A stretch of 64,000 nucleotides of DNA, taken from contig JAYRRF010000024.1 in NCBI GenBank assembly GCA_041910335.1, forward strand, positions 18,529-82,528. Direction: 5' to 3'. The notes under the pieces were generated by a model. It was given only the letters and a program-made list of their open reading frames with translations. It ran no database searches and was not told where the DNA came from. Below are positions 20,673-40,762 of the stretch, one piece after another. Every line of letters starts with the position of its first letter. Positions within the stretch are counted from its first letter, which is position 1. Made by a program: the position numbers and the translations under genes. This stretch comes from Candidatus Moraniibacteriota bacterium (GTDB lineage Bacteria; Patescibacteriota; Minisyncoccia; Moranbacterales; UBA1568).

Positions 20673-21146
20673 TTAGCCCGAACATTCGTAGGACTTGCCA
20701 TCGTGTTCGGCAGCGGCCTCGTAACCGCGCCAGAGGTAGACGATCTGCGGTGAGCAGTCGTTACGCAGGCGATGGTCGCCAAGAGCCTTGCGGCGCTCAG
20801 CGAAGTCCTTGTGGTCGCGGGCGCTCTGTTCGAACGTGCCCCAGTCGTTATCGACCGTGAGTCTGTCGAAGACCTCCGGCCAGGCAGCTTTCACCACTCT
20901 TCGCCGTTCGGCAAAGATGGCCGCCTTTTCGTTCTCTGGGCAGAAAGTACCGCAAGCCACGAACTTGCGGAAGTTCCTTTCCACAGCCGGGTCTCGGCGT
21001 ACCAGCTCGCTGGCTAGGCTGCCGATGCGATCATCCATTATTCCCAAGCGGCTTCCGGGATAAACCCAGCTGCAGCCATTGGGCAGGATGATCAGGGTGA
21101 ATAGCAACAAGGCCGCTATTCCCAGGCTCAAGAGTACTTTCTTCAC
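20673..21146 (-). CDS. Secreted/membrane-anchored Cys-containing hypothetical protein, paralog of 40217..40762
   Basis: GTG start at 21146 with an AGGAGA RBS 7 nt upstream. Signal-peptide-like MKKVLLSLGIAALLLFTLIIL. Shares WP(E/L)VFDRL and RLRN(D/H)C blocks with the protein at 40217..40762. High GC. Confidence 0.55.
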   Translation of the reverse strand: MKKVLLSLGIAALLLFTLIILPNGCSWVYPGSRLGIMDDRIGSLASELVRRDPAVERNFRKFVACGTFCPENEKAAIFAERRRVVKAAWPEVFDRLTVDNDWGTFEQSARDHKDFAERRKALGDHRLRNDCSPQIVYLWRGYEAAAEHDGKSYECSG

Positions 21147-21201
21147 GCGCAATCTCCTCTGAAATGGCGTGAATAGTGTAGCACTCTTTTGAAAAAAGTC
21201 A

Positions 21202-21780
21202 ATGGACACCAAGAAGCACATTAAGAAGCAGTCGTCTCTCAAGAGGCAGCTTCAGCAGCTTGGCAAGTCAGTCGATGGTGTGGAGGAGGCTTACCGCCAA
21301 ATCCGCGAAGTGGCTGATCTTCACCATCATGCCAAGTCTGGTGGCTACGAAAAAGCACTGGGCCGAGCAGGTACCGCTATCCGCAGTGCCCGTGAGGTGG
21401 TGGAACATGAAGATGCTGGTGTCAACGCTCGAGGTATGATCACTCGGGCAAACAATGCCAAGACCGACGCCGTCAGCATGGCGCATCAGCCGAAGCCTGA
21501 CTGGATCGGTGCCATGATGACGCTTGATGCAGTAAGCGAGCTTGCTCGCCAAGCACAGGCCGAGGCAGAGCGTGATATCGGTTCAGCCGAAGAAGCTCGT
21601 CAAAGAGCAGCTCGCCGTCGTCGCGATGAAGAAGATCGTCGTCGCCGACAACGGGACGATGATTCTTCCGATGACGGATACGGTGGAGGCAGATCTTCGT
21701 CGTCCAATTCTTCAGGAGGCGTTTTTGGCGGTTTCGGCGGGGGCAACTCTGGTGGTGGTGGCGCTACCGGTAGCTGGTAG
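21202..21780 (+). CDS. Hypothetical protein with Arg/Asp-rich and Gly/Ser-rich C-terminal tail
   Basis: ORF in the high-GC island. C-terminus reads RRRRDEEDRRRRQRDDDSSDDGYGGGRSSSSNSSGGVFGGFGGGNSGGGGATGSW. A long hairpin terminator follows. Confidence 0.45.
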   Translation: MDTKKHIKKQSSLKRQLQQLGKSVDGVEEAYRQIREVADLHHHAKSGGYEKALGRAGTAIRSAREVVEHEDAGVNARGMITRANNAKTDAVSMAHQPKPDWIGAMMTLDAVSELARQAQAEAERDIGSAEEARQRAARRRRDEEDRRRRQRDDDSSDDGYGGGRSSSSNSSGGVFGGFGGGNSGGGGATGSW

Positions 21781-21815
21781 GCTCGACCCTCTAGTCGAGT
21801 AAATGTGTGTACCTT

Positions 21816-21856
21816 GGGGAGGTGGCTTCAGCTGAAGCTACCTCCCTCTCTTTTTA
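21816..21856 (+). terminator. Rho-independent terminator (long palindromic stem)
   Basis: GGGAGGTGGCTTCAG/CTGAAGCTACCTCCC followed by TCTCTTTTT. Confidence 0.75.
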
Positions 21857-21866
21857 TCCGGAGGCA

Positions 21867-21901
21867 TACTTTTTGCTTTTGTAGAGGGGAAAGAGTAGAA
21901 T
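21867..21901 (+). promoter_or_regulatory. Copy 1 of a 35-nt duplicated promoter element (TTGCTT-17-TAGAAT) upstream of the DUF3800 gene
   Basis: TACTTTTTGCTTTTGTAGAGGGGAAAGAGTAGAAT. -35 TTGCTT at 21873-21878 and -10 TAGAAT at 21896-21901. ATG at 21909, so the transcript would be near-leaderless. Confidence 0.6.
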
Positions 21902-21908
21902 TTTAGGT

Positions 21909-22553
21909 ATGAATACACCACAATCAACAAAACAATTAGTATTTATTGATGATTCGGGTGATCCTGGCTTTAAGTTGGAACAGGGTTCTACGAGCCACTT
22001 TGTAATAGCATGCGTGATTTTTGATGATACTTTAGATGCTGAGGAAGCAGCCTTGATAATAAAAAAGTATAGGCGCGAGCTTGGCTGGTCTGACCAGCGA
22101 GAGTTTAAGTTTAACAAAACAAATAAAAAGCTGATCAAAGAGCTTTTAGAAAGATTGCAAGGCGTAGGTTTTCGGGTGAGGGCAATTTGTATTGATAAAA
22201 AAAGAATCTATAGTCATGAGCTCAAAAATAAGCAAGACTCTTTCTATAACTACGCTATCAAGGAAGTTTTGGAAAAAACAAAAACTCTCAGTCATGCTAG
22301 CGTAAAGCTCGATGGGCATTCTGGACGTACCTACAAAAAATCAGCCATCACTTATTTGCGGAGAGAGGTAAATAAAAAATCATCAAAAATAGCGAAGGTA
22401 AAGTTTGTCCATTCTCATTCAGATGTGCTTATTCAGCTCGCTGACCTAGTAGCAGGAGCTATACTGAGATCTACTCAAGAGACTAAAACTGACCATAAAG
22501 ACTACCTTCAAATTATCCAAAAAAAAGTAGAAGATGTTTGGTATTTTGGATAA
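21909..22553 (+). CDS. DUF3800-family protein
   Basis: N-terminal LVFIDDSGDPGF motif characteristic of DUF3800. Low GC. Confidence 0.6.
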   Translation: MNTPQSTKQLVFIDDSGDPGFKLEQGSTSHFVIACVIFDDTLDAEEAALIIKKYRRELGWSDQREFKFNKTNKKLIKELLERLQGVGFRVRAICIDKKRIYSHELKNKQDSFYNYAIKEVLEKTKTLSHASVKLDGHSGRTYKKSAITYLRREVNKKSSKIAKVKFVHSHSDVLIQLADLVAGAILRSTQETKTDHKDYLQIIQKKVEDVWYFG

Positions 22554-22679
22554 AATCAAAACCGACTCCTATCCTAGATGTCCTAGGCACGCACACCATA
22601 CGGTGACAGTTCAGAGCCGGTTTCATTTGTACTGGAATTATAGCATCTGAAGGGTTTTTGTCAAGGTACCAAGAAACGG

Positions 22680-22714
22680 TACTTTTTGCTTTTGTAGAGG
22701 GGAAAGGGTAGAAT
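22680..22714 (+). promoter_or_regulatory. Copy 2 of the 35-nt duplicated promoter element (TTGCTT-17-TAGAAT) upstream of the PLD-SNF2 gene
   Basis: TACTTTTTGCTTTTGTAGAGGGGAAAGGGTAGAAT, 34/35 identical to copy 1. -35 at 22686-22691, -10 at 22709-22714. ATG at 22743. Confidence 0.6.
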
Positions 22715-22742
22715 AGGGGTATATTTTCCTAATTTTAGACTC

Positions 22743-25700
22743 ATGTCTTACTCTAAGATTATTGACAATAAAAGGGTGTCCTTGAAGGATGTTCTTTTAG
22801 ACGTATCGAAAAACTTTTCTGAACTCTCAATTGCCACTGGTTATTGGGATATTGAGGGCATGAGGTTGGTTCTGAATTCAATAAAGGAGTATAAAAAAGT
22901 CCGTATCCTTATAGGAAGAGAGCCTTTACTGAAGAGAGATAATAAGACCGGTATCGATCAACCTGAACCAGACTATCCAGATCAGGATTTTTTTGAAGAT
23001 CTTCAAAGAATCAGCCCTTCTTCGGAATTAAAGCAAGTTGTTATAGCGTTGAAAAAACTGATCGACAACGGTCAGTTAGAGGTAAAAGTATATCGCAGGT
23101 CATTTTTACATGCAAAATGCTACATTTTTGGAAATTATGAGTCAACGGAAGCAGTAGGAATCATTGGTTCTTCGAATTTTACTAGAAATGGCATGACCTC
23201 TAACTCTGAATTAAATTCACTCGAATCAGATCATCGAGTAGTTGCATTTAGACCACAGACTGAACAGCAAGAAGTTGGACATTTATATTGGTTCGATAAT
23301 CTTTGGGATGATGCACTGACGGAGGATTGGACAGGAAAATTTATCGAATTAGTACGTACCTCACCACATGGTGATCTTTTGAATAGTCCTCGTGATATGT
23401 ATTTACGTACACTCTATGAGCTTTATCGTCATGAAATTGAACAGGAAGAGGAGGACATTATTAATCCTACCTCGAAAAAACTTTTTGAATTTCAAGAAAA
23501 AAATGTCAAAAATTTAAAGAGAATTTTAGATACTTACGGAGTTGCCATGCTAGCTGATTCGGTAGGGCTTGGTAAAACTATTTCTGCAATGGGCGTGATT
23601 AAACAATATAAAAATCAACGCGTAGTTGTTATTGCACCAAAAACGCTTGGTCAACAATGGGAGCAAGAGTTAGCTCAAGAGGATCTTCATAATGTCCGGG
23701 TTGTTTCTTTACAAAACAGACAAGAGATTGAAGAGCAGATAAATATTGATCAGTACAGCTCACCAGCACTCTTTGTGATTGATGAATCTCATAACCTCCG
23801 ATCCAACAATGGAACACGTTATGAATTGATTTCAGATTGGATTTCGAGCTCGTACAATGAAGAATCACATGTGCTGCTTTGTACAGCTACCCCAATCAAT
23901 AACTCGCTTACTGATCTTACGAGTCAAATTCTTCTTGGCGCACGTGGAGATCAGGATATTTTTACTTTGGCCGTTAAGACATACGGAGGACAAGTGGTGA
24001 CGAGGTCTTTTTATGAAGCCATTGATAATATAAGAAAACGTATTCAGCAAGATATTGCTCAGGGAGGAGAGAACTTAGAAGAAATTTATTTGGAGGCTCG
24101 TATTACCTTGGAGCCTATTATTCGTAATTTTGTAGTACGCAATACTCGTCAAAGTATCGGTTCATTGATTTCAGAGAATGGTGATGTACAAAATTTCCCA
24201 GAAGTAAAGATCAACAACACTAAATATCAGCCAGTACAGGTGCCACTTACCATCAGTGAACGACATCAGAAAATAACAAGTCATTCTATTGAGCAATTAG
24301 CTGATACGATGGATCGACTTAAGCATCCTATGCGTCAGATTGATGATCTTGATGTTGAGGGTGTTGCTCCCGAAAATGCAAACTCAATTTATCGTATATA
24401 CCAGCTGATTCTTGGGCTCTCGTTTGTGCCGTATCGGTGGTATATGTATGACTTTAGGCTTTATGATAAGACGAGAGATGAGTTGAGAAATATGCGCTTG
24501 TCTGGCTCCGACCTGATGAAAATCAATATGCAATTGAGCCTTTATGGAATCATGAGAACGCTTTTCTTGAAGCGCTTAGAATCATCAGCGTATGCTCTGG
24601 AAGTTTCATTGAAACGATACTTAAATCGATTGCAAGTATTTGAGCAGATTCTTCGTGATGAAAATATAATTATCAACCTCTCCGAAGTTGCCGATATCTT
24701 AGATGAGTATTCTCCAGATGACGGAGACCAGATTACTTATTCGACAGAGGAATTGTTGGAAAAGGCTCGCAAAAATCCAGAAGAAGTAGATAAGAATTTT
24801 AATAAGACAGTGCTACTTGAAGATATCCATATAGAGAAAGATCTTATCTCTGAAATCATTGGTCTTGTGGCTACCATAAAATCTACAGATCCAAAAATTA
24901 AAGATTTAAAGAGAAAATTAAAGGATTCGTATAGAGAAGATCCAGCCAAAAAGATACTCATCTTTACTTTTTTTGCTGACACTATAGATTACATTGAAAA
25001 AGAATTAGGGACTGATCCTGATATGAAGGAAGTTTTTAATCAGTCAGCTTTTGTTTCAGGAAGGGACAGAAGGCATGCTCTGCACTGTGCAAATCGTTTT
25101 GCTCCAGAAGCCAAGGGCGCGCAAAGTCTCGTAGCAGAAGAAGGTGAAATTACTTATCTTTTTGCTACAGATGTTCTTTCGGAAGGTCAAAACTTGCAAG
25201 ATTGTGGAGAGATTATCAATTATGATCTTCACTGGAATCCGGTGCGCATGGTACAGCGCAATGGTCGTATCAATCGATTGGGTACCAAACATGAAACAGT
25301 GTGGGTTGATAATTTTGTGCCAGGTGATGATCTGGAGCTCTTTTTGGGTATCATGGATCGATTAAACAAAAAGATTGAATTGATTAAACATGCTATAGGA
25401 AATGACTCTTCTATTTTTGGAGAAACTATAGATGCACGTAGCTACACAGATCTTTATAGTGATGATGCAAATAGAGCCTCGATTGCTTATGATCAACTTG
25501 AGACAAGTATAGACGCCTTTTCTGACGATATCTTTTTGAAAGATCTTAAGCACTTTCTAAAAAAAGCTACAGATGAAGAAATTCGTCAAATGAAGCGTAT
25601 CCCGTATGGATCATGGGGGATTGTACCTCAAGGTCTTACTGATCCCAATGATGTGATTCTGTTTTCCAAATTAGCGTATACAAACGGGATTACAAAAAAT

Positions 25701-26168
25701 ATTTTCTTTGGAAATGATAGAGAGGCTTTTGGAATAGGAATTATTCAAAATACCTTAGCATTGCAAATGCTTCGTTCTAGTTTGGAAGATAAGCCGTTGG
25801 ATACAATTTTGTTAGACAAAGAAAAGCAAATTCAAACCATGTTTCGCAGGGGACCCCAAATTGCCAGAGATACGAATGTAGATAGTTCACTGACTCCTAC
25901 CAAGGAAAGAGTATTGAACGAATCAAGGGTATACGGATGGAGTGCCGAAGAAATAGACAAATTACGTTCCACTCTTTCTACACGCAATGTAAATCTTGGA
26001 CGAAAAGTTAGTCGTATTGTTCGACTTATCAATGCAGCTATCAAAGAAAATATTTCAACAGAAAGTTATTATAGAGATCTCAAGAAGCTTTTAGTGGAAC
26101 CTTCTGAATCAGCGATGGTGACGGATGTACAGTTTTTGCTTGGGTATACTGATCATTACTCACGATAA
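22743..26168 (+). CDS. Phospholipase-D-family (HKD) nuclease fused to an SNF2-family SF2 helicase (1141 aa); restriction/defense-type
   Basis: N-terminal single HKD motif: FLHAKCYIFGN...GIIGSSNFTRNG. Helicase motifs: I LADSVGLGKT, II VIDESHNLRS, III LLCTATP. A long insert follows, then C-terminal motifs V LFATDVLSEGQNLQ and VI HWNPVRMVQRNGRINRLG. Confidence 0.85.
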   Translation: MSYSKIIDNKRVSLKDVLLDVSKNFSELSIATGYWDIEGMRLVLNSIKEYKKVRILIGREPLLKRDNKTGIDQPEPDYPDQDFFEDLQRISPSSELKQVVIALKKLIDNGQLEVKVYRRSFLHAKCYIFGNYESTEAVGIIGSSNFTRNGMTSNSELNSLESDHRVVAFRPQTEQQEVGHLYWFDNLWDDALTEDWTGKFIELVRTSPHGDLLNSPRDMYLRTLYELYRHEIEQEEEDIINPTSKKLFEFQEKNVKNLKRILDTYGVAMLADSVGLGKTISAMGVIKQYKNQRVVVIAPKTLGQQWEQELAQEDLHNVRVVSLQNRQEIEEQINIDQYSSPALFVIDESHNLRSNNGTRYELISDWISSSYNEESHVLLCTATPINNSLTDLTSQILLGARGDQDIFTLAVKTYGGQVVTRSFYEAIDNIRKRIQQDIAQGGENLEEIYLEARITLEPIIRNFVVRNTRQSIGSLISENGDVQNFPEVKINNTKYQPVQVPLTISERHQKITSHSIEQLADTMDRLKHPMRQIDDLDVEGVAPENANSIYRIYQLILGLSFVPYRWYMYDFRLYDKTRDELRNMRLSGSDLMKINMQLSLYGIMRTLFLKRLESSAYALEVSLKRYLNRLQVFEQILRDENIIINLSEVADILDEYSPDDGDQITYSTEELLEKARKNPEEVDKNFNKTVLLEDIHIEKDLISEIIGLVATIKSTDPKIKDLKRKLKDSYREDPAKKILIFTFFADTIDYIEKELGTDPDMKEVFNQSAFVSGRDRRHALHCANRFAPEAKGAQSLVAEEGEITYLFATDVLSEGQNLQDCGEIINYDLHWNPVRMVQRNGRINRLGTKHETVWVDNFVPGDDLELFLGIMDRLNKKIELIKHAIGNDSSIFGETIDARSYTDLYSDDANRASIAYDQLETSIDAFSDDIFLKDLKHFLKKATDEEIRQMKRIPYGSWGIVPQGLTDPNDVILFSKLAYTNGITKNIFFGNDREAFGIGIIQNTLALQMLRSSLEDKPLDTILLDKEKQIQTMFRRGPQIARDTNVDSSLTPTKERVLNESRVYGWSAEEIDKLRSTLSTRNVNLGRKVSRIVRLINAAIKENISTESYYRDLKKLLVEPSESAMVTDVQFLLGYTDHYSR

Positions 26169-29100
26169 TGAATTACGATCAAATCAATCAACAATTAGAG
26201 ACAATACGCAAAACTAAAAACATTGAAGATGTGCAGTCTTTGGTGTGTCTTTTGCTTGAGCCGCTAGGTATTGTAGGATGCAAGCCTGAAGAATTACTTA
26301 ATCATAGCTCGGTACAACGTGAATTTTCTCGTTTCATGCCCGCACAAGGGTTCAGAGATCGAGCTGCTGCTTATACCATCAAACATACGTCGGATTTGCC
26401 GGTAGATATCAAACTCTACTGGATCAAAAAAACCACCAAAGCCAATCTTTCATGGCTCATGGCTCTTACTCCTAATTACGAAGACAACCCAGAGATTAAT
26501 ACCTCTATGAATCTGGGCATCGATATTATAGTTTCAGAGAATTGTGAAAGTATCTATCTGGTACTTTCAAGTATGCTCAAAGTTCGAGTATTGGAGTTAA
26601 ATGGGGTTCTCTCTCATACTCAGAGAGAAATACTTGAGAACTGGCAGAAAATAGGTTCTACTACAGATTCTCAATCAGAGAACTTCAAGCAAGAATTGCA
26701 TAAACTTCTTTGGAAGAGTTTTGACTTTGAGCCGATCAACCGTAAATTCTATCAAGAACTTGTCACACAGTTTGATCATCTAGTCCTTCATCTCAAGCCT
26801 ATAGTTGGGGAGGCATCGGCCAAGATGTTTGCAGTGAGGTTTATCGGAAGAACACTCTTTTTGTGGTTTCTCCGCAAAAAGGATTTTATCAATCCAGAGA
26901 AAGAATACTTCAATGTTTCAGGAAGTGATGATCAGAGTCTTTACTACCATTCCAAGTTAGAATCATTGTTTTTTGAGGTGCTCAACACTGAGGTAAAATC
27001 ACGTAGTTTTGATGATTTTGTGACTCCATTTCTTAATGGAGGGCTATTTGAGCCAATAGAAACAGATTTTTATAGGGATGAGAAGCTGACTTTTCCAGAA
27101 GGATTCTTCACTCAGTTCTTTGATGTCCTTAATCGCTATAATTTCACCGTAGATGAGGGTACTTCTGAGTATGAGCAAGTGGCGGTGGATCCAGAAATGT
27201 TGGGACGAGTATTTGAGAATCTCCTCGCTTCTATCAATGATGAGACAGGCGGGCAGGCCCGTAAGTCTAAAGGAGCTTTTTATACACCTCGTGAGATTGT
27301 GGACTATATGTGCAAGCAGTCTCTCATAGAGTATTTAAAAACAAAGCTTCCAGATACCGCTAATCGAGATCGTCGTATAGAAGAACTTGTCACTATGGAC
27401 GAGGCCACATTTCGTGATCAGGATCACAACAAGCGTCGTGACTGGAAGAAAGATCTTGGTCAAGAGACTGTACTAAAAGCCCTTGATGAATTACGTATCC
27501 TTGATCCGGCAGTTGGGTCGGGCGCTTTTCCTATGGGTATGCTGAATCTCTTGGTCAAGGTCTATACACGTATTGATACTAGCAGAGAGAAAGATCTTGC
27601 TACGCTCAAAAGAGAAATTCTTTCTCGATCGCTCTATGGTGTAGATATAGATCAGATGGCTATACAGATTAGTCGTCTCCGAGCCTGGCTTTCTATTTTG
27701 GTAGATATGGAGAGTCTCAAAAAAATTGATCCGCTGCCAAACCTAGACTTCAAGTTTGTTTGTGCTAATACGTTGATAGCCCTTGATGAAGGGCCAAATA
27801 GTTTATTTGATACTGATATAGAACTCAAAAAACATTTGATAGATCTTAGGGATAAGTACTACGCTGCTACACGTAAGGTAGACAAAGGGAAAATTAGAAA
27901 AGAATATCTATTTTCTATTCAAAAGGGAGGCGAATTATTCGCTTCCAAAAGAGAATTGCAGTTGAGGGATTATAATCCTTTTAATCCTCTTAATTCTACC
28001 AATTTCTATGATCCTGAACTCATGCACGGAGTGGAGAGTTTTGATGTCGTGATAGGTAATCCGCCATACGTGCAGCTTCAAAAGTTTGCCCGTACTCAAA
28101 TTCAGAAAGATTTAGAGAATGAAAAATACCAAACCTTTGCAAAAACAGGAGATTTATACGCTCTCTTTTACGAAAAAGGATTGAATCTTACCAGTCTAGA
28201 TTCAGGTTTGCTCTGTTACATTACGAGCAACAAGTGGATGAGGGCGGGGTATGGCGAAAGTCTTCGTAGATATTTTGTGCAACACAATCCGCTTCTTTTG
28301 CTAGATTTAGGAAGTGGTGTGTTTGAGAGTGCTACGGTAGATAGTAATATTTTATTGATTCAGAATACCTTAAATAAAGGAGAAACAAAGGCAGTCACGA
28401 TTAAGGATAATAAGAAAAGTTTTTCTACTCAGTTGCAAGAACATGGATCAGTGGTAAATTTTGATTCAAGTGGTCCGTGGTTTATTGGTACTCAAGTAGA
28501 GATTAATCTAAAAAATAAAATTGAGACAAATGGAAAACCTCTTAAAGATTGGGATGTTTCAATTAACTATGGTATAAAGACCGGCCTTAATGAAGCTTTT
28601 ATTATTAATCAGGAAAAACGAGATGAGTTGATTGCTCAGGATCTAAAAAGTGAAGAAATTATTAAGCCTATTTTGCGAGGAAGGGATATAAAGAGATATT
28701 CCTACAATTTTTCAGGTCTATATTTGTTAATGACAGGTTTTGATTTTGACATTCCAGTGGAATACCCTGTCGTTTTTAATCATCTGAAGCAGTTTGAAGA
28801 AAAGGCAAAGAAAAGAGATGATCAGGGTAAAAATTGGTGGAATTTGAGAGCATGCGTTTATTATGATGAGTTTGAAAAAGAAAAAATAGTATGGGGAAAT
28901 ATAGCATACAATTCCACTTTTTCAGTGCTAGGTAGTAGCTATTACTTAAATGCTCCTGGAAACCTTATAACTTCTAATTCCACTAGTTTAAAGTTTTTGT
29001 TAGGTTGTTTAAATTCGAAAATATTCAATTGGGAATTCAAAAAAGAAGGTATATTTTTAGGGAATGCTTATGAATGGAAGAAGCAGTATGTAGAACAGAT

Positions 29101-29287
29101 TCACTTGCCATTGAAACAAGATTCACAAAGTATTAAAAAAATTGAGAGTATTGTTGAAAAAATCATATACTTAAAAAAAATAAATCTTGATGCAGACACC
29201 AAAGATCTAGAAGCTCAAATTGATCAGCTTGTTTATCACCTTTATGACCTAACAGAAGATGAAATTAAGATAATTGAAGAATCTTAA
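26168..29287 (+). CDS. Gamma-class N6-adenine DNA methyltransferase with Eco57I/TaqI-like C-terminal target-recognition domain (Type IIG/ISP/PglX-like architecture, no recognisable nuclease domain; 1039 aa)
   Basis: FLNGGLFEP and KGAFYTPREIVDYM N-terminal motifs, motif I ILDPAVGSGAFPMG, motif IV VIGNPPYVQ. TaqI_C-like GIKTGLNEAFII and ILRGRDIKRY. C-terminal LYDLTEDEIKIIE. The start overlaps the upstream stop (TAATG), consistent with translational coupling. Confidence 0.85.
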   Translation: MNYDQINQQLETIRKTKNIEDVQSLVCLLLEPLGIVGCKPEELLNHSSVQREFSRFMPAQGFRDRAAAYTIKHTSDLPVDIKLYWIKKTTKANLSWLMALTPNYEDNPEINTSMNLGIDIIVSENCESIYLVLSSMLKVRVLELNGVLSHTQREILENWQKIGSTTDSQSENFKQELHKLLWKSFDFEPINRKFYQELVTQFDHLVLHLKPIVGEASAKMFAVRFIGRTLFLWFLRKKDFINPEKEYFNVSGSDDQSLYYHSKLESLFFEVLNTEVKSRSFDDFVTPFLNGGLFEPIETDFYRDEKLTFPEGFFTQFFDVLNRYNFTVDEGTSEYEQVAVDPEMLGRVFENLLASINDETGGQARKSKGAFYTPREIVDYMCKQSLIEYLKTKLPDTANRDRRIEELVTMDEATFRDQDHNKRRDWKKDLGQETVLKALDELRILDPAVGSGAFPMGMLNLLVKVYTRIDTSREKDLATLKREILSRSLYGVDIDQMAIQISRLRAWLSILVDMESLKKIDPLPNLDFKFVCANTLIALDEGPNSLFDTDIELKKHLIDLRDKYYAATRKVDKGKIRKEYLFSIQKGGELFASKRELQLRDYNPFNPLNSTNFYDPELMHGVESFDVVIGNPPYVQLQKFARTQIQKDLENEKYQTFAKTGDLYALFYEKGLNLTSLDSGLLCYITSNKWMRAGYGESLRRYFVQHNPLLLLDLGSGVFESATVDSNILLIQNTLNKGETKAVTIKDNKKSFSTQLQEHGSVVNFDSSGPWFIGTQVEINLKNKIETNGKPLKDWDVSINYGIKTGLNEAFIINQEKRDELIAQDLKSEEIIKPILRGRDIKRYSYNFSGLYLLMTGFDFDIPVEYPVVFNHLKQFEEKAKKRDDQGKNWWNLRACVYYDEFEKEKIVWGNIAYNSTFSVLGSSYYLNAPGNLITSNSTSLKFLLGCLNSKIFNWEFKKEGIFLGNAYEWKKQYVEQIHLPLKQDSQSIKKIESIVEKIIYLKKINLDADTKDLEAQIDQLVYHLYDLTEDEIKIIEES

Positions 29288-29291
29288 TGTC

Positions 29292-29846
29292 ATGAGTCAA
29301 TCTTACAAAAACTTCTGGAGTCTGAATACTGACGAGGCTGTAGTAACGGGAATTCTAAAGAGTGAGACCGAAAAACAAGTAGAGGTCCTGATGCCGCTCA
29401 ATGCCCAGATGAAAGGAATAGATCTTTTCTTGATGAACGTAAAAAATAAAAAGATTGTCTCAGTTCAGGTAAAAGGGAGTCGTGCGTACGAACCGAAGCC
29501 TACAGAAGTAAAAAAGTATGGAGCGGGTTCTACGGGCTGGTTCTTTCTTTCACAAGATGTATTTGATAAGTCTTCTGCAGACTTTTTTCTTTTTCTGGTG
29601 TATGTAATCTGTGATTCTAGTAAGACGGGTAAAAGAAGCATCGAAACACATACTATCACTATCCCTACCAAAAAAATTAAGGAACTATGTAAAAAATACA
29701 AAAAACCTCATCCAGATAGATATAGCTTTTATTTTTGGGTAAATCCAGAAGAGAAAAAAGCTTTTGACTTTAGAGATCAGTATTATGATGTGAGTCAGTA
29801 TCTAGACAAGAAAGGTTTTGAAGTCTTAAACAAAATTCTAAAATAG
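29292..29846 (+). CDS. Hypothetical protein, possible PD-(D/E)xK-like fold (weak)
   Basis: ATG lies 4 nt after the methyltransferase stop. GIDLFLMNV...KIVSVQVKGS resembles a D...(E/Q)xK core. No firm family assignment. Confidence 0.45.
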   Translation: MSQSYKNFWSLNTDEAVVTGILKSETEKQVEVLMPLNAQMKGIDLFLMNVKNKKIVSVQVKGSRAYEPKPTEVKKYGAGSTGWFFLSQDVFDKSSADFFLFLVYVICDSSKTGKRSIETHTITIPTKKIKELCKKYKKPHPDRYSFYFWVNPEEKKAFDFRDQYYDVSQYLDKKGFEVLNKILK

Positions 29847-29887
29847 GGACAGGGGGGTATTGTTAAAATTGATGGTCTTAAAAATAT

Positions 29888-30355
29888 ATGTCTAATATAA
29901 AATTTGCGCGGAATTTAGTGAAAGGAAAAATTGCTGAGACAGTATTTGCTCAGATGCTTCGTGATACTAAGGAGTTTACTGTGTTGGAGTTTGGCTATGA
30001 GAAAATTATCCCAGAGCTCGTGCAGCGTGGCGCCAAAGAGGGAGATAAGGAGCTGGAAACCTTGCGCACAGCACCAGACTTTGCAGTAATCAATAAGACG
30101 ACAAATAAAGTGCATCTTATCGAAGTAAAGTATCGTAAAACAAAAAAGAAAAGCGATATCTTGGCTATCGCCACGCGTATGACAAAATCTTGGAATCCAT
30201 CATATCTTTTCTTGGCTACTCAAGACGGATTCTATTTTGATGAAGTCCAAGAAATCATAAAAAATTGTGGCAATATAAAACCATTGGCGCATGAACACAT
30301 ACCACAAGAGTTACAAAAAGATTATTTAGAAATACTTAATGCTTTTGAAAAATAA
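29888..30355 (+). CDS. PD-(D/E)xK nuclease-fold protein (YraN/Hjc-like motif arrangement)
   Basis: GKIAETVFAQML (Gly-x-x-A-E helix), then APDFAV, then VHLIEVKYRK (D...E-x-K). Confidence 0.5.
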   Translation: MSNIKFARNLVKGKIAETVFAQMLRDTKEFTVLEFGYEKIIPELVQRGAKEGDKELETLRTAPDFAVINKTTNKVHLIEVKYRKTKKKSDILAIATRMTKSWNPSYLFLATQDGFYFDEVQEIIKNCGNIKPLAHEHIPQELQKDYLEILNAFEK

Positions 30356-30661
30356 ACTAATTTGACTTTTGCTTTGATTCGATCAAAGATCAAAGCATAA
30401 ATGAAGAAATACAAAATTTTCCAAAGCACGCGTGCCAGTTTTGTGGCAGTGAACGAAAGTGGGCAGAGACCCTTATCGATGATGAGTTTTTTTTGGAATA
30501 AAGATACTAGCCAGTATGAGCCAAATAAATTTACTGATGATTTCGAGCATACAGGCAACGATAGATGTTCTCAGTGTAAGAGGAAGTGGACTGGGTTTTA
30601 AGGACTGATTTTTGTTTTCTTTACTCAGAAAGAGTAAAATAAAGAGGTAATCATAAGTGCT

Positions 30662-30925
30662 ATGCGTATGGCAGAATCTCAGAAAAAACGTCACAATTGC
30701 GCGAGTTGCTTCATGCCTTTCAAGGAGGATCCGGGAGTGCGAGAGCATCCTGACTACTGTAGCTATTGCTATCGGAACGGTCAGCATAATGCTGATGGGT
30801 CTACTCTCAAGCATTTTCAGGAGATGTGCTATACCAATATGGTGAAAAATGGCTTACCTCAATGGAAAGCAAAATTCTTTGCTTGGACTATCCAGTTCGC
30901 TCCATACTGGAAAGGAAGAAAATAG
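30662..30925 (+). CDS. Putative zinc-ribbon domain protein (Zn_ribbon_2-like)
   Basis: CASCFMPF ... HPDYCSYCYRNG pattern of two CxxC knuckles, then a C-terminal MCYTNM region. About 87 aa. Confidence 0.5.
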   Translation: MRMAESQKKRHNCASCFMPFKEDPGVREHPDYCSYCYRNGQHNADGSTLKHFQEMCYTNMVKNGLPQWKAKFFAWTIQFAPYWKGRK

Positions 30926-30954
30926 CAAGTTTGTTTCAGTCATATAAAATCGAA

Positions 30955-30990
30955 GGCCCGGGTCACTGCAGTTGCAGGCCCGGGCTTTTC
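30955..30990. terminator. Bidirectional GC-rich hairpin terminator between convergent genes
   Basis: GCCCGGG-TCACTGCAGTTGCAG-GCCCGGGC palindromic stem followed by TTTTC. Confidence 0.6.
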
Positions 30991-30995
30991 GGTTC

Positions 30996-31268
30996 TCATT
31001 GACCAAAGCGTTCCTCGCTTCGGTAGTGACTGGCATAGGTCGACCTGAGGCCGTTTTTGCCTCGCTTCTGGAAGCGTTGCTCCCAGATGTCGAGTTCTTC
31101 TTGGCTCATCTGGTAGAAGATGAGGATGTTGTCAGGCGTGACAATGCCATCATGGATGGCACGGAGGATGACGGCTTTGCGCTCATACGTCATCCGTGCA
31201 TCAGGGGCGGGCAGACGACCATCCCTGACGAGTTCGTCGGGGGCGACCATGGATGCGAGACAGTTCAT
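30996..31268 (-). CDS. DUF1153-family small protein (alphaproteobacterial type, often IS-associated), high GC
   Basis: ERKAVILRAIHDGIVTPDNILIFYQMSQEELDIWEQRFQKRGKNGLRST matches the DUF1153 pattern (LSxEEf.xWq..fxxhG..gLR.T). AAGGAG RBS lies 5 nt upstream of the ATG. Confidence 0.6.
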   Translation of the reverse strand: MNCLASMVAPDELVRDGRLPAPDARMTYERKAVILRAIHDGIVTPDNILIFYQMSQEELDIWEQRFQKRGKNGLRSTYASHYRSEERFGQ

Positions 31269-31339
31269 GTGAGCTCCTTCTCTTGAGAACAGGAATTCAT
31301 TAAAGCATGAGAAGGGGCGTCTGTCTAGAGAGTGAGAGG

Positions 31340-32548
31340 TCAGGCTTTTTTCTTGAAGAAAAGCATGTACCAGGAAGCGAGAGCGAAGCAGCTTCCAGTG
31401 ATGAATGGCATAGCAATGCCAAAGAAGCCAGAACCGAAGCCAGCAAGAAGAGGGATAGTACCTTGGGCAAGGGCCATGAGGGAGCCATTGATACCGAGGG
31501 CGACGCCTTGCTTACTCGGGCCGACGCTTTTACTCACCAGGGCGCTCATGTTGGCCATGGTGAGACCATTGGGGATAGCGAGAAGTGGGATGATGCTATA
31601 AATCCAGATGAGTGATGGCACGAATGGGTAGAGGGAGAGCGCGAAGGCCATGACGAGGATGGTGATGCGGAGAATCTGACGCTCTCGGTAGCGACGACTG
31701 ATGATGCGGAGGATGACTGCCTGAGTGATGATAATCCAAAAACCGACCGCACCGAAGAAAGTACCGATAGCACTCTCAGAGAGACCGAAGCGAGAGACGA
31801 GGAGTATGCCGATGAAAGAGGTGAAAAAAGCAAAGCCAGACGTGTAGAAAAAGCTCGCGATGTAGACTGGTCGAGCATCATGATCGCGCCACGCGGCCTG
31901 GATATTGTGGATGCCTTTCCAGAGGTGGAAGTTCTTTTCTTCTTTTCTGTTATGATGGGTCTCGGTGAGAAAGAGTGAGATGAAGACGACGTTGATGATA
32001 CCGAGAGCTGAGGCGAACCAAAAAGGTGCTGCGGCATTGCCACTGACTGAGACGATGAAGCCACCAAGCATCGGTCCGAGGATGAAGCCAATACCGACCG
32101 CCACACCGATGAGACCGAAGTTGCGGGCACGAAATTCAGGGAGAGTGATATCAGCGATACTGGCCTGAGCGACTGAGAAGTTGCCACCAGCAATACCAGC
32201 GATGATACGACTGATGAAGAGAATGAGGAGGGATCCAGTCTCTATCCCGAAGCCGAAGAGGAGTTGGGAGATGGCTAAGACGCCGACACCGAATGTGATA
32301 ATCTTCTTGCGACCATAGACATCTGAGAGTTCACCGAAAAGTGGGGCGGAGATGAACTGCATGAGCCCGAAGAGTGCCGTAAGAAGCCCAGCCATGGTGT
32401 ACTGTAGGCCAGTAGAATAGCCTTGAAGTATGAAGTCGGGTGAGCTCGGGTCGGTGAAGATGACTGGGATAATCGGGATGAGCATCCCGATACCGATCAT
32501 ATCGAGGAGGATAGTAGCGAAGAGAACGGGGAAAACTTTACGTGCCAT
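31340..32548 (-). CDS. MFS-family transporter (12 TM; drug/H+ antiporter-like)
   Basis: 12 hydrophobic segments. MFS motif A-like [11 protein letters not shown] between TM2 and TM3. Confidence 0.8.
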
Positions 32549-32709
32549 AGCGTTTTATGAATGGATGGATTGGAAGTAAATAAGAATGAGCGTGACAATG
32601 ACAAAACTCGCTACAACAGGTAGGAGAAAGAGAAGTGATTTCATAATAGTTTGGTATGGCCTCATTATACCATCTTTCGGAAGTGCTTGGAGAGGAGTAT
32701 ACTAGAAGC

Positions 32710-33006: not shown

Positions 33007-33031
33007 AATAATTCATTAATATAATAAGAGT

Positions 33032-33454: not shown

Positions 33455-33470
33455 ATCCCAGTAATTCTTT

Positions 33471-33779: not shown

Positions 33780-33793
33780 CAATAACTAGAGAC

Positions 33794-34726: not shown

Positions 34727-35026
34727 TTACTTACCAGTTGGACCAAGATCTGCCCAAGCATCATCGACACGGTCGATCTCTCTGAGACGATCAATTTCTT
34801 TGTCTGGATCAAGAATAGCAGCACGTACTTCATCATCAGTACGTCCGTGGAAACGATGTTTGCCTACTCTCTCGAAGTAGAGTTTCTCTAGGGCCTCACG
34901 ATCAAGGCTAGCCAAATCCAGCTCCGCCGTCTGTTCATCCACAGCATCCTCTTTTTTGGGAAGATTTAAATCGAGTTGCTCCTCAGGGGTTTCCATGAAG
35001 GAGAAATGAAATTGTTGTTCACCCAT
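34727..35026 (-). CDS. Small acidic hypothetical protein
   Basis: Start at the internal ATG (MGEQQFHFSFMETPEEQ...). The ORF-track start at 35128 would overlap the divergent exonuclease gene and add an implausible N-terminus. Confidence 0.4.
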   Translation of the reverse strand: MGEQQFHFSFMETPEEQLDLNLPKKEDAVDEQTAELDLASLDREALEKLYFERVGKHRFHGRTDDEVRAAILDPDKEIDRLREIDRVDDAWADLGPTGK

Positions 35027-35060
35027 AGCAGTAGTTATTAGGCGTATTGATACGGTCATT

Positions 35061-35082
35061 ATAGCATGGTTTGGCATGCTAT
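35061..35082. promoter_or_regulatory. 8-bp perfect inverted repeat (ATAGCATG-gtttgg-CATGCTAT) in a divergent promoter region
   Basis: Seen directly in the sequence between divergent genes 34727..35026 (-) and 35109..35846 (+). Confidence 0.4.
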
Positions 35083-35108
35083 ACTTAAGGGTATTATAGA
35101 ACAAAAAT

Positions 35109-35846
35109 ATGACCAAAAATAACCTCATTTTCCTGGATACTGAGACGACCGGACTGACCCCAGAAGACCGTCTCTGTCAGCTTGCCTATACTTTTCAAGG
35201 AAAGGAATTCGAAGCTCTATTCAAGCCACCACTGCCAATTTCTATCGAAGCAATGTCGGTCACTCATATCACCAATCGCATGGTGGCTGATAAAGAGGTG
35301 TTTGCTGATTCCCGGGCGAAGTCAGAGCTCATCCATCTGTTAGGAGAGGGGAATATACTAGTCGCTCACAATGCACGATTTGATATCGATATGCTCAAGC
35401 GAGAAGGGGTAGAAGTAGGTAAGTATATCGACACCTTCAAGGTCGCCTATGCCTTGGATGAGCAAGGTGAGATCCCACGTTACGCATTGCAGTACCTTCG
35501 TTACTATTTCGACCTCGATGTATCGGAAGCGACAGCGCACAGTGCACTTGGCGATGTACGCGTACTAGTAGCAGTGTTTGACTTTCTGTTTGCCAAGATG
35601 ATGGTGGTGCACCAGGATGAAGACCGGGTCATCGAAGAGATGAGCGCCCTTTCTGATAAGCCTCTTCTCTTCCGCACTTTCACCTTCGGGAAGTATAGTG
35701 GGCAGTCTATCAAAGAAGTCGCTGCTAACGATCAGGGCTATATCGCCTGGCTCCTCAATCAAAAAATCATGAATCGTGAGAATGGTGGTGAAGATGATGA
35801 GAACTGGATTTATACACTCGACTATTATCTCGAAAAAACATCATGA
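35109..35846 (+). CDS. DEDDh 3'-5' exonuclease (DnaQ/ExoX-like) with C-terminal DUF3820-like domain
   Basis: Exo I FLDTETTGL, Exo II VAHNARFDIDML, Exo III HSALGDV. C-terminal FGKYSGQSIKEV...YIAWLL. Confidence 0.8.
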   Translation: MTKNNLIFLDTETTGLTPEDRLCQLAYTFQGKEFEALFKPPLPISIEAMSVTHITNRMVADKEVFADSRAKSELIHLLGEGNILVAHNARFDIDMLKREGVEVGKYIDTFKVAYALDEQGEIPRYALQYLRYYFDLDVSEATAHSALGDVRVLVAVFDFLFAKMMVVHQDEDRVIEEMSALSDKPLLFRTFTFGKYSGQSIKEVAANDQGYIAWLLNQKIMNRENGGEDDENWIYTLDYYLEKTS

Positions 35847-37324: not shown

Positions 37325-37327
37325 TAT

Positions 37328-37570
37328 ATGCGAGTAGCAGTCACAGTCAAAACCAATGCGAGAGAAGAAAAAGTCACAGAATCACGTGGGGGTTCGGCCT
37401 CCAAGTATGGGCGAGAGTTAGTGGTGAGTGTGAAGGCAGTGCCGGTAGAAGGTAAAGCGAATGAGGCTCTGCGCAAAATACTCGCCAAGCACTTCAAGAC
37501 CAGTCCATCATGCATCACGTTGGTACGTGGCACAAGAAGTAAAGAAAAAGTTTTTGATATCCTTTTATGA
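37328..37570 (+). CDS. DUF167 (YggU/UPF0235) family protein
   Basis: VKAVPVEGKANEALRKILAKHFKTSPSCITLVRGTRSKEKVFDI matches DUF167. Confidence 0.65.
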   Translation: MRVAVTVKTNAREEKVTESRGGSASKYGRELVVSVKAVPVEGKANEALRKILAKHFKTSPSCITLVRGTRSKEKVFDILL

Positions 37571-37860
37571 CCAAAGAGTATAAAATCAAGGCCAAAGTCT
37601 TCGTCTATAGCGTTGAGCCAGCGAGCTGGTATTTCGTCAGTATTGATAAAAAAATAACAGAAGAAATAAAAGCAAAAGCGAAGAAGAAAGTGGGGTTTAG
37701 TTTTGTACCAGTCGAGGTGACAGTAGGGAGGACGACTTGGCGGACAACCCTCTTCCCGACCAAGGAAGGTCCATATATACTGGCTCTCAAAAAGATAGTG
37801 CGACAAAAAGAAGATATCCGAGAAGGGGACATAGTGACTGTAAGATTTCATCTGGTTTAG
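37567..37860 (+). CDS. DUF1905-family protein
   Basis: WYFVSI...GFSFVPVEVTVGRTTWRTTLFPTKEGPYILALKKIVRQKEDIREGDIVTV pattern. Confidence 0.55.
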   Translation: MTKEYKIKAKVFVYSVEPASWYFVSIDKKITEEIKAKAKKKVGFSFVPVEVTVGRTTWRTTLFPTKEGPYILALKKIVRQKEDIREGDIVTVRFHLV

Positions 37861-37881
37861 CTAGCTGTTATACTGAAAAAT

Positions 37882-38682
37882 ATGCAAAAAATCGAAATCC
37901 AAAACCGTAAAGGTCAGAAAATAGTCGGACTCCTTAATTTACCAGAAGGTGTGACCAGAGGAACGGCAGTGATTCAGCATGGGTATGGTGGACTCAAAAG
38001 TCAGGCTCATATTCTTAAAATGGAACAAGCATTTCATGATAATGGTTTTGTGACGTTTAATTTTGATACAACGAATTCTTTCGGAGAAAGTGATGGTACA
38101 TACTGGGAGGCGAGACTCGGACTGCATGCCGAAGATCTTGAAGACGTCGTCAAATGGGTAGAGCAACAAGAGTGGTTCGTGAAACCTCTCGCGCTCACCG
38201 GGCATAGCATGGGTGGCTATGCAGTAGCACGGTATGCAGAACACTATCCAGAAGAGGTAGATATACTCGTACCAGTTGCACCAGTTGTCTCCGGTGAGCT
38301 TTCATGGGAAACTCATCAAGAACTTGAACCTGAGGCATTCAGGATTTTTCAAGAAAAAGGGTATAAGGAATCAGTCAGTCAGACTACAGGAATTGTGAAG
38401 AAATCTCCTTGGGCAGAAATGGAAGAGAGACTCGATCATGATCTTCTGCCGTTGGCTAAAAATCTCACTATGCCCACACTTCTAGTAGTAGGCTCACAAG
38501 ATGAAAGTTGCCGTCCTCAGGACATCAAGCTTCTTTACGATGCATTACCTATAAGCACGAAGAAAAATTATGTAGAGATAGAAGGTGCGCCGCATACTTA
38601 TCGTACAGAAGAACATCTACAGTCTCTTTACGATATAATAAACGATTGGCTGAAAGAAGTGGTTTTCAATAATGCCCAATAA
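37882..38682 (+). CDS. Alpha/beta-hydrolase fold protein
   Basis: Nucleophile elbow LTGHSMGGYAV. Acid/His region LLVVGSQDE ... APHTY. Confidence 0.75.
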   Translation: MQKIEIQNRKGQKIVGLLNLPEGVTRGTAVIQHGYGGLKSQAHILKMEQAFHDNGFVTFNFDTTNSFGESDGTYWEARLGLHAEDLEDVVKWVEQQEWFVKPLALTGHSMGGYAVARYAEHYPEEVDILVPVAPVVSGELSWETHQELEPEAFRIFQEKGYKESVSQTTGIVKKSPWAEMEERLDHDLLPLAKNLTMPTLLVVGSQDESCRPQDIKLLYDALPISTKKNYVEIEGAPHTYRTEEHLQSLYDIINDWLKEVVFNNAQ

Positions 38683-38685
38683 ATC

Positions 38686-40011
38686 ATGACCCAAAAGACA
38701 GCACTTGCATTGTTACGAGCTGGCCACAGTATCTTTCTCACGGGGGAAGCTGGCGCTGGTAAGACACATACTATCAATGAGTATGTGCGTTTTTTGCGTG
38801 AGCACAAAATAGCCTACGCAGTCACTGCTTCGACTGGTATCGCCGCGACTCATATCAGTGGGATGACTATCCATTCATGGAGTGGCATAGGGACAGCGCG
38901 AGAGCTTAGTGAAGCAGAAATCAAAAATATTGCTAAGACGGCACATGTTGCTAAACGAATCAGAAAGGCTAAGGTGCTCATCATTGATGAAATCTCTATG
39001 TTGGACGGCCGCACGCTCTCTTTGGTGGAGACGGTTTGTCGAGTGGTTCGGAAGACGAGCCTGCCTTTCGGAGGAATGCAAGTCATTCTTGTCGGGGATT
39101 TTTTTCAGTTGCCACCAGTGACGGGTCGAGGTGAGGCGCCGCAGTATGCTTTTGAGAGTGAGGCGTGGTCACGCTTGATGCCAGTCATTTGTTATCTCGA
39201 GGAGCAGTATCGCCAGGAGGATGAAGTATACCTACGTCTCCTCAAAGCCATTCGCCACAATACACTTGAAGAAACAGATTATGAGACTTTTCGTGCTCAG
39301 ATGGTTTCAGAGGATGAGGCGCCACTTGGAGTGACGCGACTGTACGCTCACAATATTGATGTGGACAGAGTCAACCAAGAAGAGCTCAGACAACTTCCAG
39401 GAAAAGTGATGGCCTATCAAATGAGAGGAGAAGGAAAAGAACAGCTTGTAGAAGCATTGAAGCGCAATTGTCTTTCCCCAGAACGTCTTGAGCTCAAAGT
39501 AGGTGCACTGGTCATGTTCACGAAGAACAATCAGCTCGATGGCTATGTCAACGGTACGCAAGGAGTGGTGCTTTCATTTCACCCAGACACCAAGCTCCCG
39601 ATTGTGAAAACCAAGAGTGGGAATATCATTGAGGTGGGACCAGCCGAATGGTCACTTTTTGAAGGTGATGAGGAGTTAGCAAGTGTGACCCAGTTGCCTC
39701 TCCGTCTAGCGTGGGCACTCACCATCCATAAGAGTCAAGGGACGAGCCTTGATGCGGCGGTCATTGACCTCTCCAAAGCTTTTGAATATGGGCAAGGTTA
39801 TGTAGCATTGTCACGTGTCCGCACTCTCCGCGGACTACATCTTATCGGCATGAATCAGAAGGCCACAGCTATCCATCCATATATCCGCACAATGGACGAA
39901 GAATTTCGTCAGGCTTCTCATGAAGCCAAACAAAAACACGCTTCTTTGTCAGATGAAGCGCGTCAAGAACTTGAGCACACTTTCCTCCTTTTTGTTGGCG
40001 GAAAGAAGTAG
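38686..40011 (+). CDS. PIF1/RecD-family SF1 DNA helicase
   Basis: Walker A FLTGEAGAGKTH, Walker B LIIDEISML, VGDFFQLPPV motif, C-terminal ALTIHKSQG. Confidence 0.8.
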   Translation: MTQKTALALLRAGHSIFLTGEAGAGKTHTINEYVRFLREHKIAYAVTASTGIAATHISGMTIHSWSGIGTARELSEAEIKNIAKTAHVAKRIRKAKVLIIDEISMLDGRTLSLVETVCRVVRKTSLPFGGMQVILVGDFFQLPPVTGRGEAPQYAFESEAWSRLMPVICYLEEQYRQEDEVYLRLLKAIRHNTLEETDYETFRAQMVSEDEAPLGVTRLYAHNIDVDRVNQEELRQLPGKVMAYQMRGEGKEQLVEALKRNCLSPERLELKVGALVMFTKNNQLDGYVNGTQGVVLSFHPDTKLPIVKTKSGNIIEVGPAEWSLFEGDEELASVTQLPLRLAWALTIHKSQGTSLDAAVIDLSKAFEYGQGYVALSRVRTLRGLHLIGMNQKATAIHPYIRTMDEEFRQASHEAKQKHASLSDEARQELEHTFLLFVGGKK

Positions 40012-40177
40012 TCTGGGTATAACAAAAGCCCTCAATGCGGGCAAGTGGGTCTGGGTCCCTGAAAATAAGCATCGGAAAAAATAATTTTTTCCCTAGAAAT
40101 CTAGGTGGGTCCCAATTAGGAGTAGAAACTCCGTCACGTACCTTTCTGAAGGCTTTCAACTATAGTATAGCACAGGT

Positions 40178-40218
40178 GAAAAGGCGCCCACTTCCATCGA
40201 TGGGAAGGGGCGCCTTTC
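40178..40218. terminator. Bidirectional hairpin terminator between convergent genes
   Basis: AAAGGCGCCC-ACTTCCATCGATGGGAAG-GGGCGCCTTT with a nested inner hairpin. It abuts the stop codon of the minus-strand gene. Confidence 0.65.
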
Positions 40219-40762
40219 AGTTGCAGCGATAGCCCTGCTCGCGGTTGAGGCGATAGTAGGGCATATGGCTTTGGGGGTCGGTATAGAACTCGATGATCGG
40301 AACGCAGTGATTGCGCAGTCGGTCGGCACCAAGATGCCGAATGGAGCGAAAAAATCGATCATGAGCATCCTGAGCCTTGAGCTCTCGTTTGCTTGGGTCA
40401 CTTGATGGCTTGAGCCAGTCTTGACCACCGTCATTGACGAGACGGTCGAAAACAAGTGGCCACTCCTTACGAATTGTTTCATCACGATGTTTCATGATGA
40501 GCCTGAGTCGTTCAGAGTCTTCGCAAATCGGTGAAGCCATGCAGCGCTTGAAATCTTCGAAAGAAGCTGAGAGGCTTGGTGAGCGGCGCATGAATTCGCC
40601 GCTGACCGCCTCGATACTTTCTTCGTAGAGTCCAAGTTTGCTCCAGGGGTTGAGCGCCCGCGGGTTGCCCCCAGCGAGCTGGAAGAGGAAAAGACTGACA
40701 TAGTATACAGCCACTAGTAGCGAGACGCCCCACAGGAGGCGCTTGAGATGATTGTGAGTCAC
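40217..40762 (-). CDS. Membrane-anchored/secreted Cys-containing hypothetical protein, paralog of 20673..21146
   Basis: N-terminal anchor LLWGVSLLVAVYYVSLFLF. Shares KEWPLVFDRLVND and ADRLRNHC blocks with the 20.7-kb copy. High GC. Confidence 0.6.
   Translation of the reverse strand: MTHNHLKRLLWGVSLLVAVYYVSLFLFQLAGGNPRALNPWSKLGLYEESIEAVSGEFMRRSPSLSASFEDFKRCMASPICEDSERLRLIMKHRDETIRKEWPLVFDRLVNDGGQDWLKPSSDPSKRELKAQDAHDRFFRSIRHLGADRLRNHCVPIIEFYTDPQSHMPYYRLNREQGYRCN

Follow-up and report, generated by a model that had tools for sequence, protein, structure and literature searches.

Two divergent paralogs of a predicted membrane-anchored four-cysteine protein family in a Candidatus Moraniibacteriota genome

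We analyzed a stretch of 64,000 nucleotides from a Candidatus Moraniibacteriota bacterium (contig JAYRRF010000024.1; the whole stretch is hereafter called the window), which contains two genes, named copy 1 and copy 2, that each encode a small cysteine-containing protein with a hydrophobic N-terminus. The original prediction described the two as diverged paralogs lying about 19 kb apart on GC-rich islets, each beside a divergently transcribed gene, and proposed that a secreted-protein cassette had been acquired repeatedly or duplicated. Both open reading frames (ORFs) are present (Table 1), the distance between them is 19.07 kb, and a divergent ORF is located upstream of each. The history that we propose for the pair is a different one. 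We consider it fairly probable (roughly 0.7) that these genes are real, vertically inherited ancient paralogs at fixed positions and not parts of a mobile cassette, and that their products are N-terminally anchored proteins with two disulfides and an extracytoplasmic binding domain. On present evidence, the finding is a lineage-restricted family of hypothetical proteins of the envelope type, and not a new biological system.

The two genes and their protein family

Pairwise BLASTP alignment supports the paralogy: the two proteins share 30% identity across 147 amino acids (aa) (61 bits, E=5e-17), and both were matched by a hidden Markov model (HMM) of the family at about 1e-45 to 1e-47. A scan of all six frames of the window with tblastn and the family HMM did not detect a third copy. 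Each of the two loci is matched at ~98.5% identity by a short metagenomic contig (L002 for copy 1 and L001 for copy 2). Eleven of the 14 strain differences inside the two coding sequences (CDSs) are synonymous and 11 fall at third codon positions, with six synonymous and one non-synonymous difference between copy 1 and L002, and five and two, respectively, between copy 2 and L001. The synonymous share expected from random changes is ~23% (binomial p=1.5e-5). Together with the conservation of the family, this bias excludes an antisense or GC-rich artefact, one of the outcomes that had been named as fatal to the prediction. We conclude that both ORFs are functional, monocistronic genes.

The ORF of copy 1 is nested in a longer ORF with a TTG start. 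The 157-aa form is backed by the ENA call and by the family alignment, in which the hydrophobic N-terminus is kept in every member. In one independent gene call (L022 4059..4424, corresponding to window 20673..21038), copy 1 starts at an internal ATG at codon 37, which gives a product of 121 aa from which the anchor is dropped.

Relatives were collected by an exhaustive HMMER search, in which a profile of the paralogs was run against 1.84 billion cluster representatives. This search yielded 71 clusters at E<=1e-3, of which 51 reached E<=1e-10. It was needed because word-indexed homolog searches returned only the near-identical proteins P0001 and P0002 for the two copies, and three matches for a 62-sequence profile. 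The locus scans of genomes, viruses and metagenomes used one exact peptide pattern, some giving no locus and others two and four, and the contigs of P0018 and P0008 are too short to show gene context. Apart from P0054, the family proteins are ~85-220 aa long, the shortest being probably partial. P0054 is a 593-aa repeat protein that was judged a spurious match and left out.

The family alignment contains 62 sequences (residue numbers follow copy 2). C74, W101 and W116 are invariant in it, and C80, R93, F137, G145, C153, P155 and C180 are conserved in at least 90% of the sequences. The recurring motifs are SKLG, EFMRRSP, WPxVFDRL, DW and LRNxCxP, and the blocks quoted in the original prediction (F-K/R..C..C, KEWP.VFDRL and RLRN.C.P.I) turned out to be the conserved core of the family. 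Both window copies have the features of the family, namely a length of 150-220 aa, an N-terminal hydrophobic helix, four Cys, and W101 and W116 in a WPxVFDRL...DW core.

Neither copy, nor any of the 62 members, has a match in Pfam, and the window copies were not matched in NCBIfam, PHROGs or PADLOC. PHROGs and PADLOC gave no phage or defence link for the family or its small neighbours, a profile search of the PDB sequences found no relative, and a literature search found no description of the family. As to the organisms, L011 is labelled Ca. Moraniibacteriota / Moranbacteria and P0073 Patescibacteria group, and the exonuclease III of the window belongs to the same 90%-identity cluster as an L011 protein annotated Candidatus Moranbacteria bacterium. 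The family is rare, unnamed and so far found only in uncultured bacteria, in backgrounds resembling Patescibacteria (Candidatus Moranbacteria and relatives), with sewage, glacier-fed streams and groundwater as source environments.

Predicted topology, fold and cysteine pairing

The Kyte-Doolittle maximum (19-residue window) is 2.68 at residues 4-22 of copy 1 and 2.18 at residues 9-27 of copy 2, in agreement with the N-terminal signal or anchor segments that had been proposed. All 62 members have such an N-terminal hydrophobic segment, with a median uncharged run of 19 residues, and the mean net charge across the family is +1.3 on the N side of the segment and +0.2 on its C side. These properties fit an N-in/C-out anchor or a long signal peptide. 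As an anchor, the single hydrophobic helix would hold each protein in the cytoplasmic membrane, with the N-terminus inside and the C-terminus outside; as a signal peptide, it would allow the protein to be released. A lipobox ([LVI][ASTVI][GAS]C) is not conserved: two of the 62 members fit this loose pattern, the corresponding region of copy 1 reads LPNGC, which is non-canonical, and that of copy 2 has no Cys. The h-regions are ~18-20 residues long, versus 7-15 for substrates of signal peptidase I. Copy 2 has a possible cleavage site (LAG|G), and copy 1 has a Pro at position -3.

In the case of cleavage, a mature disulfide-bonded protein of ~13-15 kDa would be released and would act on the host or partner cell of an episymbiotic Patescibacterium, as an effector or adhesin that evolves fast. 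An n-h-c-like N-terminus in all members and the far faster divergence of the family genes than of their neighbours would agree with such a role, as would the confinement of the family to genomes of a type of organism that depends on partner cells; this dependence is established for cultivated Patescibacteria (for example PMC9894109, PMC11623550). However, hydrophobic runs of ~19 residues are long for cleaved signal peptides, and an AxA-type cleavage site is not conserved, yet the segment behind the helix (SKLG...) is. In addition, AlphaFold places the N-terminal helix with high confidence, and secretion or pilus genes are not linked to the family as a whole. We regard release as unlikely.

Two groups of known proteins may be compared with the family. 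Small secreted Cys-rich proteins of symbionts and pathogens, which are a descriptive class and not a homologous family, are likewise small, exported, disulfide-stabilised, fast-evolving, lineage-restricted and paralogous. The present family differs from this class in having only four Cys and an N-terminus resembling a permanent anchor, and its genes are chromosomal and syntenic and do not lie in effector clusters. CnrX and CpxP/Spy, which are small N-terminally anchored extracytoplasmic helical sensors or chaperones, share with it the size class, the N-terminal membrane helix or signal, and a compact, mostly helical domain of ~110-130 residues predicted to lie outside the membrane.

The structure prediction proposed as a check gave a confident model. 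With the 62-sequence alignment, AlphaFold2 modelled copy 2 with a predicted local distance difference test (pLDDT) score of 96.0 and a predicted template modelling (pTM) score of 0.85; this run replaced one with the two paralogs alone (pLDDT 70.6). The model has an N-terminal helix, helices at residues 53-60, 62-75, 84-108, 125-144 and 146-152, and then four short strands. The exposed domain would comprise ~130 residues that form four or five helices and, after them, a small beta-meander of four strands. A Foldseek search against the PDB gave no match below E 0.4, with TM scores below 0.25, and the absence of a known fold refers to the PDB only.

The third and fourth conserved Cys (C3 and C4) are jointly lost in P0052, P0058 and P0061, which keep C1 and C2, and the C1-C2 spacing ranges from X3 to X10. 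Because of this joint loss and variable spacing, C1-C2 and C3-C4 disulfides fit better than a metal site, and the proteins probably contain two disulfides. C1-C2 would close a loop of variable length between two helices, and C3-C4 would join the first and last beta-strands. It is very unlikely that the four Cys instead bind a metal (Zn or Fe-S) in a cytoplasmic domain, which would make these proteins tail-less, membrane-tethered regulatory or redox proteins. The four conserved Cys do form two pairs, and the charge bias of copy 2 is neutral across the helix, but a C1-C2 spacing of 3-10 residues is unlike that of metal knuckles, and the three members lacking C3 and C4 retain the rest of the domain. 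Moreover, the family-wide charge bias favours N-in/C-out, and no zinc-ribbon or Fe-S family was matched.

A conserved polar and aromatic cluster (EFMRRSP, R93-D94, W101-P-x-V-F-D-R-L, D115-W116 and L-R-N-x-C-x-P) may form a binding surface for a ligand of the envelope or of a partner cell, for which the paralogs would differ in specificity. A binding site seems more likely than a catalytic site, and this is the weakest step of our interpretation. A role at the surface or in the interaction with a host or partner is plausible, and this only because the organism appears to be a Patescibacterium of the episymbiont type and because the proteins outpace their neighbours in evolution.

Ancestry, synteny and base composition

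Copy 2 is 53% identical to P0003, 47% to P0004, 42% to P0006 and 41% to P0005. Copy 1 reaches no more than 38% identity with any cluster representative, and 44% with genes in L010 and L011. In a neighbour-joining tree, the copies are placed in separate clades, that is, in different subfamilies. Searching for the family in other genomes, as the original prediction had advised, also revealed positional orthologs in relatives. Genes of the copy-2 type (P0003 in L006-L009, the gene in L014, and P0004 in L018) are convergent with a Pif1 helicase gene and are followed by small hypothetical genes and then by UvrC and UvrA, exactly like copy 2 in the window. Genes of the copy-1 type in L010, L011 and L017 are convergent with a homolog of the 300-aa gene of the window (39%, 38% and 97% identity, respectively), and the gene order of L011 matches that of the window between the glyoxalase gene and DUF3800. 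The flanking proteins are 58-89% identical to those of relatives and the family proteins 44-53%, indicating that the family genes and the adjacent small hypothetical genes evolve faster. Distant members are located alone amid housekeeping genes (ClpB; holB, frr, rseP and proS; HU and RNase Y).

The GC content is 0.589 for the CDS of copy 1, with 0.715 at third codon positions (GC3), and 0.537 for that of copy 2, with a GC3 of 0.588. These values correspond to the 99.7th and 97th percentiles, respectively, of windows of the same length, and the mean GC of the whole window is 0.447. Thus, both genes are indeed richer in GC than their surroundings, and the excess extends through the family: in eight of the ten independent loci with flanks, the family gene lies 3.5-13 GC points above its surroundings, the exceptions being L006 and L014. 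GC3 is 0.52-0.71 in the family genes of L003, L010, L011, L015-L019 and both window copies, and ~0.29-0.48 in flanking genes, including HU (0.35), S15 (0.45) and frr (0.34). The adjacent lineage-specific genes also have the excess (the 300-aa gene, a gene for a TPM-domain protein, and the 122-aa and 129-aa genes of L018). Because the excess persists between orthologs whose synonymous sites are necessarily saturated, it reflects neither foreign DNA that has yet to ameliorate nor the usual codon bias linked to translation. The latter was also ruled out as the cause of the high GC3 by HU, S15 and frr, in which GC3 is not elevated.

One possible explanation is GC-biased gene conversion at loci prone to recombination. 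It also forms part of a wider and rather improbable proposal, in which a surface family specific to Patescibacteria, with an unseen fold, would serve in the recognition of or attachment to partner cells, the paralogs would differ in specificity, and the GC3 excess would be the footprint of frequent allelic recombination, through such gene conversion, at a diversifying locus.

The scenario first suggested for these genes, in which a secreted-protein cassette arrived recently on foreign high-GC islets, either through two horizontal acquisitions or through duplication, is largely refuted by these data, and we give it very little chance. Besides the GC richness of both genes relative to the window, it could draw on the location of copy 1, which lies inside a ~25 kb block (7.5-32.6 kb) missing from L006 between its cupin and DUF1294 genes, and which adjoins a variable defence island and borders a break in synteny with a near-identical strain at 21203. 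However, an identity of 30% between members of different subfamilies does not suit a recent event, and relatives contain positional orthologs of both copies in which the family genes are just 44-53% identical and have kept the GC3 excess, which argues against its being the trace of a recent import. In addition, the DNA flanking one copy does not resemble that flanking the other, the two divergent neighbours show no homology to one another, neither a tRNA nor an integrase nor a repeat boundary was detected near the copies, and no relatives were matched in phage and plasmid collections or viral contigs. The copies thus lack the marks of a mobile cassette or islet. The low identity, separate subfamilies, positional orthologs and unrelated flanks point to an old duplication and vertical inheritance.

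The remaining alternative, that GC-rich DNA, which here does give rise to long ORFs in several frames, has produced both ORFs as non-coding or antisense artefacts, has next to no probability and is already refuted by the substitution pattern and family conservation, since the strain differences are biased to synonymous and third positions in exactly the called frame, both genes have ribosome binding sites (RBSs) and terminators, ~70 homologous clusters share conserved residues, and the fold is predicted confidently.

Several points weigh against our interpretation of anchored, disulfide-containing ancient paralogs. The topology is deduced solely from hydropathy and the positive-inside rule, and copy 2 has no charge difference across the helix (+2 on either side). 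The disulfide pairing is deduced from conservation and joint loss, and a disulfide-forming enzyme was not identified within the window. The tree is without support values. Beyond lineage-specific hypothetical genes, no functionally informative neighbour is conserved family-wide. Finally, one 4-kb contig of a metagenome-assembled genome with a family member is labelled Bdellovibrionales, a label that we consider less reliable.

Feature coordinates, surrounding loci and significance

The features of the two loci are listed in Table 1.

Table 1. Features at and around copy 1 and copy 2, in window coordinates.
Feature	Coordinates	Strand	Description and source
Copy 1 CDS	20673..21146	-	157 aa, GTG start; ORF list; family HMM E=9.6e-45
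Copy 1 N-terminal anchor			MKKVLLSLGIAALLLFTLIILP; conserved Cys of copy 1 at 65, 69, 131 and 155; extra Cys25 not conserved
Copy 1 RBS	21154..21159	-	GAGGAG, 7 nt upstream of GTG; read from sequence
Copy 1 sigma-70-like promoter match	21175..21202	-	TTGACT, 16 nt spacer, TG-TACACT; consensus scan; a consensus match only, the promoters of this phylum being uncharacterised
Copy 1 intrinsic-terminator hairpin	20613..20641	-	Followed by T-rich tail; scan; RNA fold -25.7 kcal/mol, z=-8.3
Copy 2 CDS	40217..40762	-	181 aa, GTG start; ORF list; family HMM E=5.9e-47
Copy 2 N-terminal anchor			LLWGVSLLVAVYYVSLFLF; conserved Cys at 74, 80, 153 and 180
Copy 2 RBS	40770..40775	-	AAGGAG, 7 nt upstream of GTG; read from sequence
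Copy 2 terminator-like hairpin	40179..40218	-	From the stop codon on, then UUUU; RNA fold -26.9 kcal/mol, z=-5.8; missed by a simple terminator scan
300-aa hypothetical gene	19615..20517	+	Convergent with copy 1; conserved neighbour of copy-1-type genes
Divergent neighbour of copy 1	21202..21780	+	192-codon C-terminal remnant of a TPM-domain membrane protein
Divergent neighbour of copy 2	40816..41325	+	Hypothetical; true start probably internal Met33; fast-evolving
Rfam DUF3800-IX RNA motif	22555..22623	-	65 bits, E=5.6e-12; directly after the DUF3800 gene, on the opposite strand

The products of the 300-aa gene and of the divergent neighbour of copy 2 have no match in Pfam, NCBIfam, PHROGs or PADLOC; the latter product is 97.7% identical in L001 and 31% identical to that of a 129-aa gene at the equivalent position in L018. 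The region from copy 2 to UvrC (40816..42573) contains three or four hypothetical genes that are small and rich in GC (169, 144 or 143, and 178 aa). They share only 30-42% identity with the genes at the corresponding positions in L006 and L018 and form a fast-evolving pocket beside repair genes with 73-89% identity.

At copy-1-type loci (L011, and probably L010 and the strain represented by L002), a gene encoding a TPM-domain (PF04536, YgcG-like) protein is divergently paired with the family gene and has the same local GC excess. The family protein itself is without a TPM domain, and copy-2-type and other loci lack the pairing. All that is left of the TPM gene in the window is the remnant listed in Table 1, whereas copy 1 is intact. 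The 683-aa TPM_phosphatase protein of L011 (7703..9754 (-)) aligns over its residues 493-628 with the product of this remnant (E=8e-43). L002, which is 98.5% identical to the window, departs from it exactly at 21203, where a divergent gene (MRHFTLPLAALVL...) begins (positions 1..170 of L002). The remnant and this break point to a strain-specific deletion of ~1.5 kb, with an ATG formed at the junction. A Logan contig of run SRR26835473 has the same truncated TPM arrangement.

The DUF3800 gene is followed by a defence island of low GC content (35-40%) whose products are a 1141-aa HKD+SNF2 helicase and a 1039-aa type IIG restriction-modification enzyme (21909..30355 in all). In L011 (1761..7582), an 85%-identical DUF3800 gene is followed instead by a DUF5655 gene, an N6/N4 methyltransferase gene and a ResIII helicase gene, and the site behind DUF3800 looks like a hot spot for the exchange of defence systems. 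Both the copy-1 block and this island are part of the ~25 kb (~7500..32650) located in the window between the cupin and DUF1294 genes, which adjoin in L006. The other contents are an AcrAB-like efflux system, rhodanese/DUF2202, TspO, an LCAT-like protein of 1110 aa and an MFS transporter. L011 has part of the block, without AcrAB and the DnaA_C-domain gene. The window also encodes two UvrA-like paralogs, at 965..3553 (862 aa) and 44621..47416 (931 aa), of which the 862-aa protein is ~45% identical to the UvrA of relatives and has a DnaJ-type CXXCXGXG match.

A type IV pilus cluster is located at 47434..55708 and consists of a 305-aa gene, PilC, a large N-methyl/CarboxypepD_reg pilin-like protein, a pilin, a 484-aa gene, PilM and two small genes. 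A secretin gene does not follow this cluster; next come a 120-aa ORF and then radical-SAM genes. The type IV pilus clusters of related contigs likewise have no secretin, and one context contains RNase Y, both of which fit a monoderm-like Patescibacterium. In L019-L021, a pilus cluster is located ~2 kb from the family gene, past the HU and RNase Y genes.

A large fraction of bacterial diversity is accounted for by Patescibacteria, and these bacteria seem to live attached to other cells. To our knowledge, type IV pili are the sole established attachment factor in cultivated relatives of the present organism, and other surface molecules of Patescibacteria are almost uncharted. The family described here, which is lineage-restricted, confidently foldable, predicted to be membrane-anchored and stapled by disulfides, and represented by two old paralogs, offers a concrete target for structural studies and for tests of partner binding. 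Its GC3 excess, which is independent of the genomic background and not common to highly expressed genes, is a small, real compositional puzzle that bears on how local base composition is kept up in reduced genomes.

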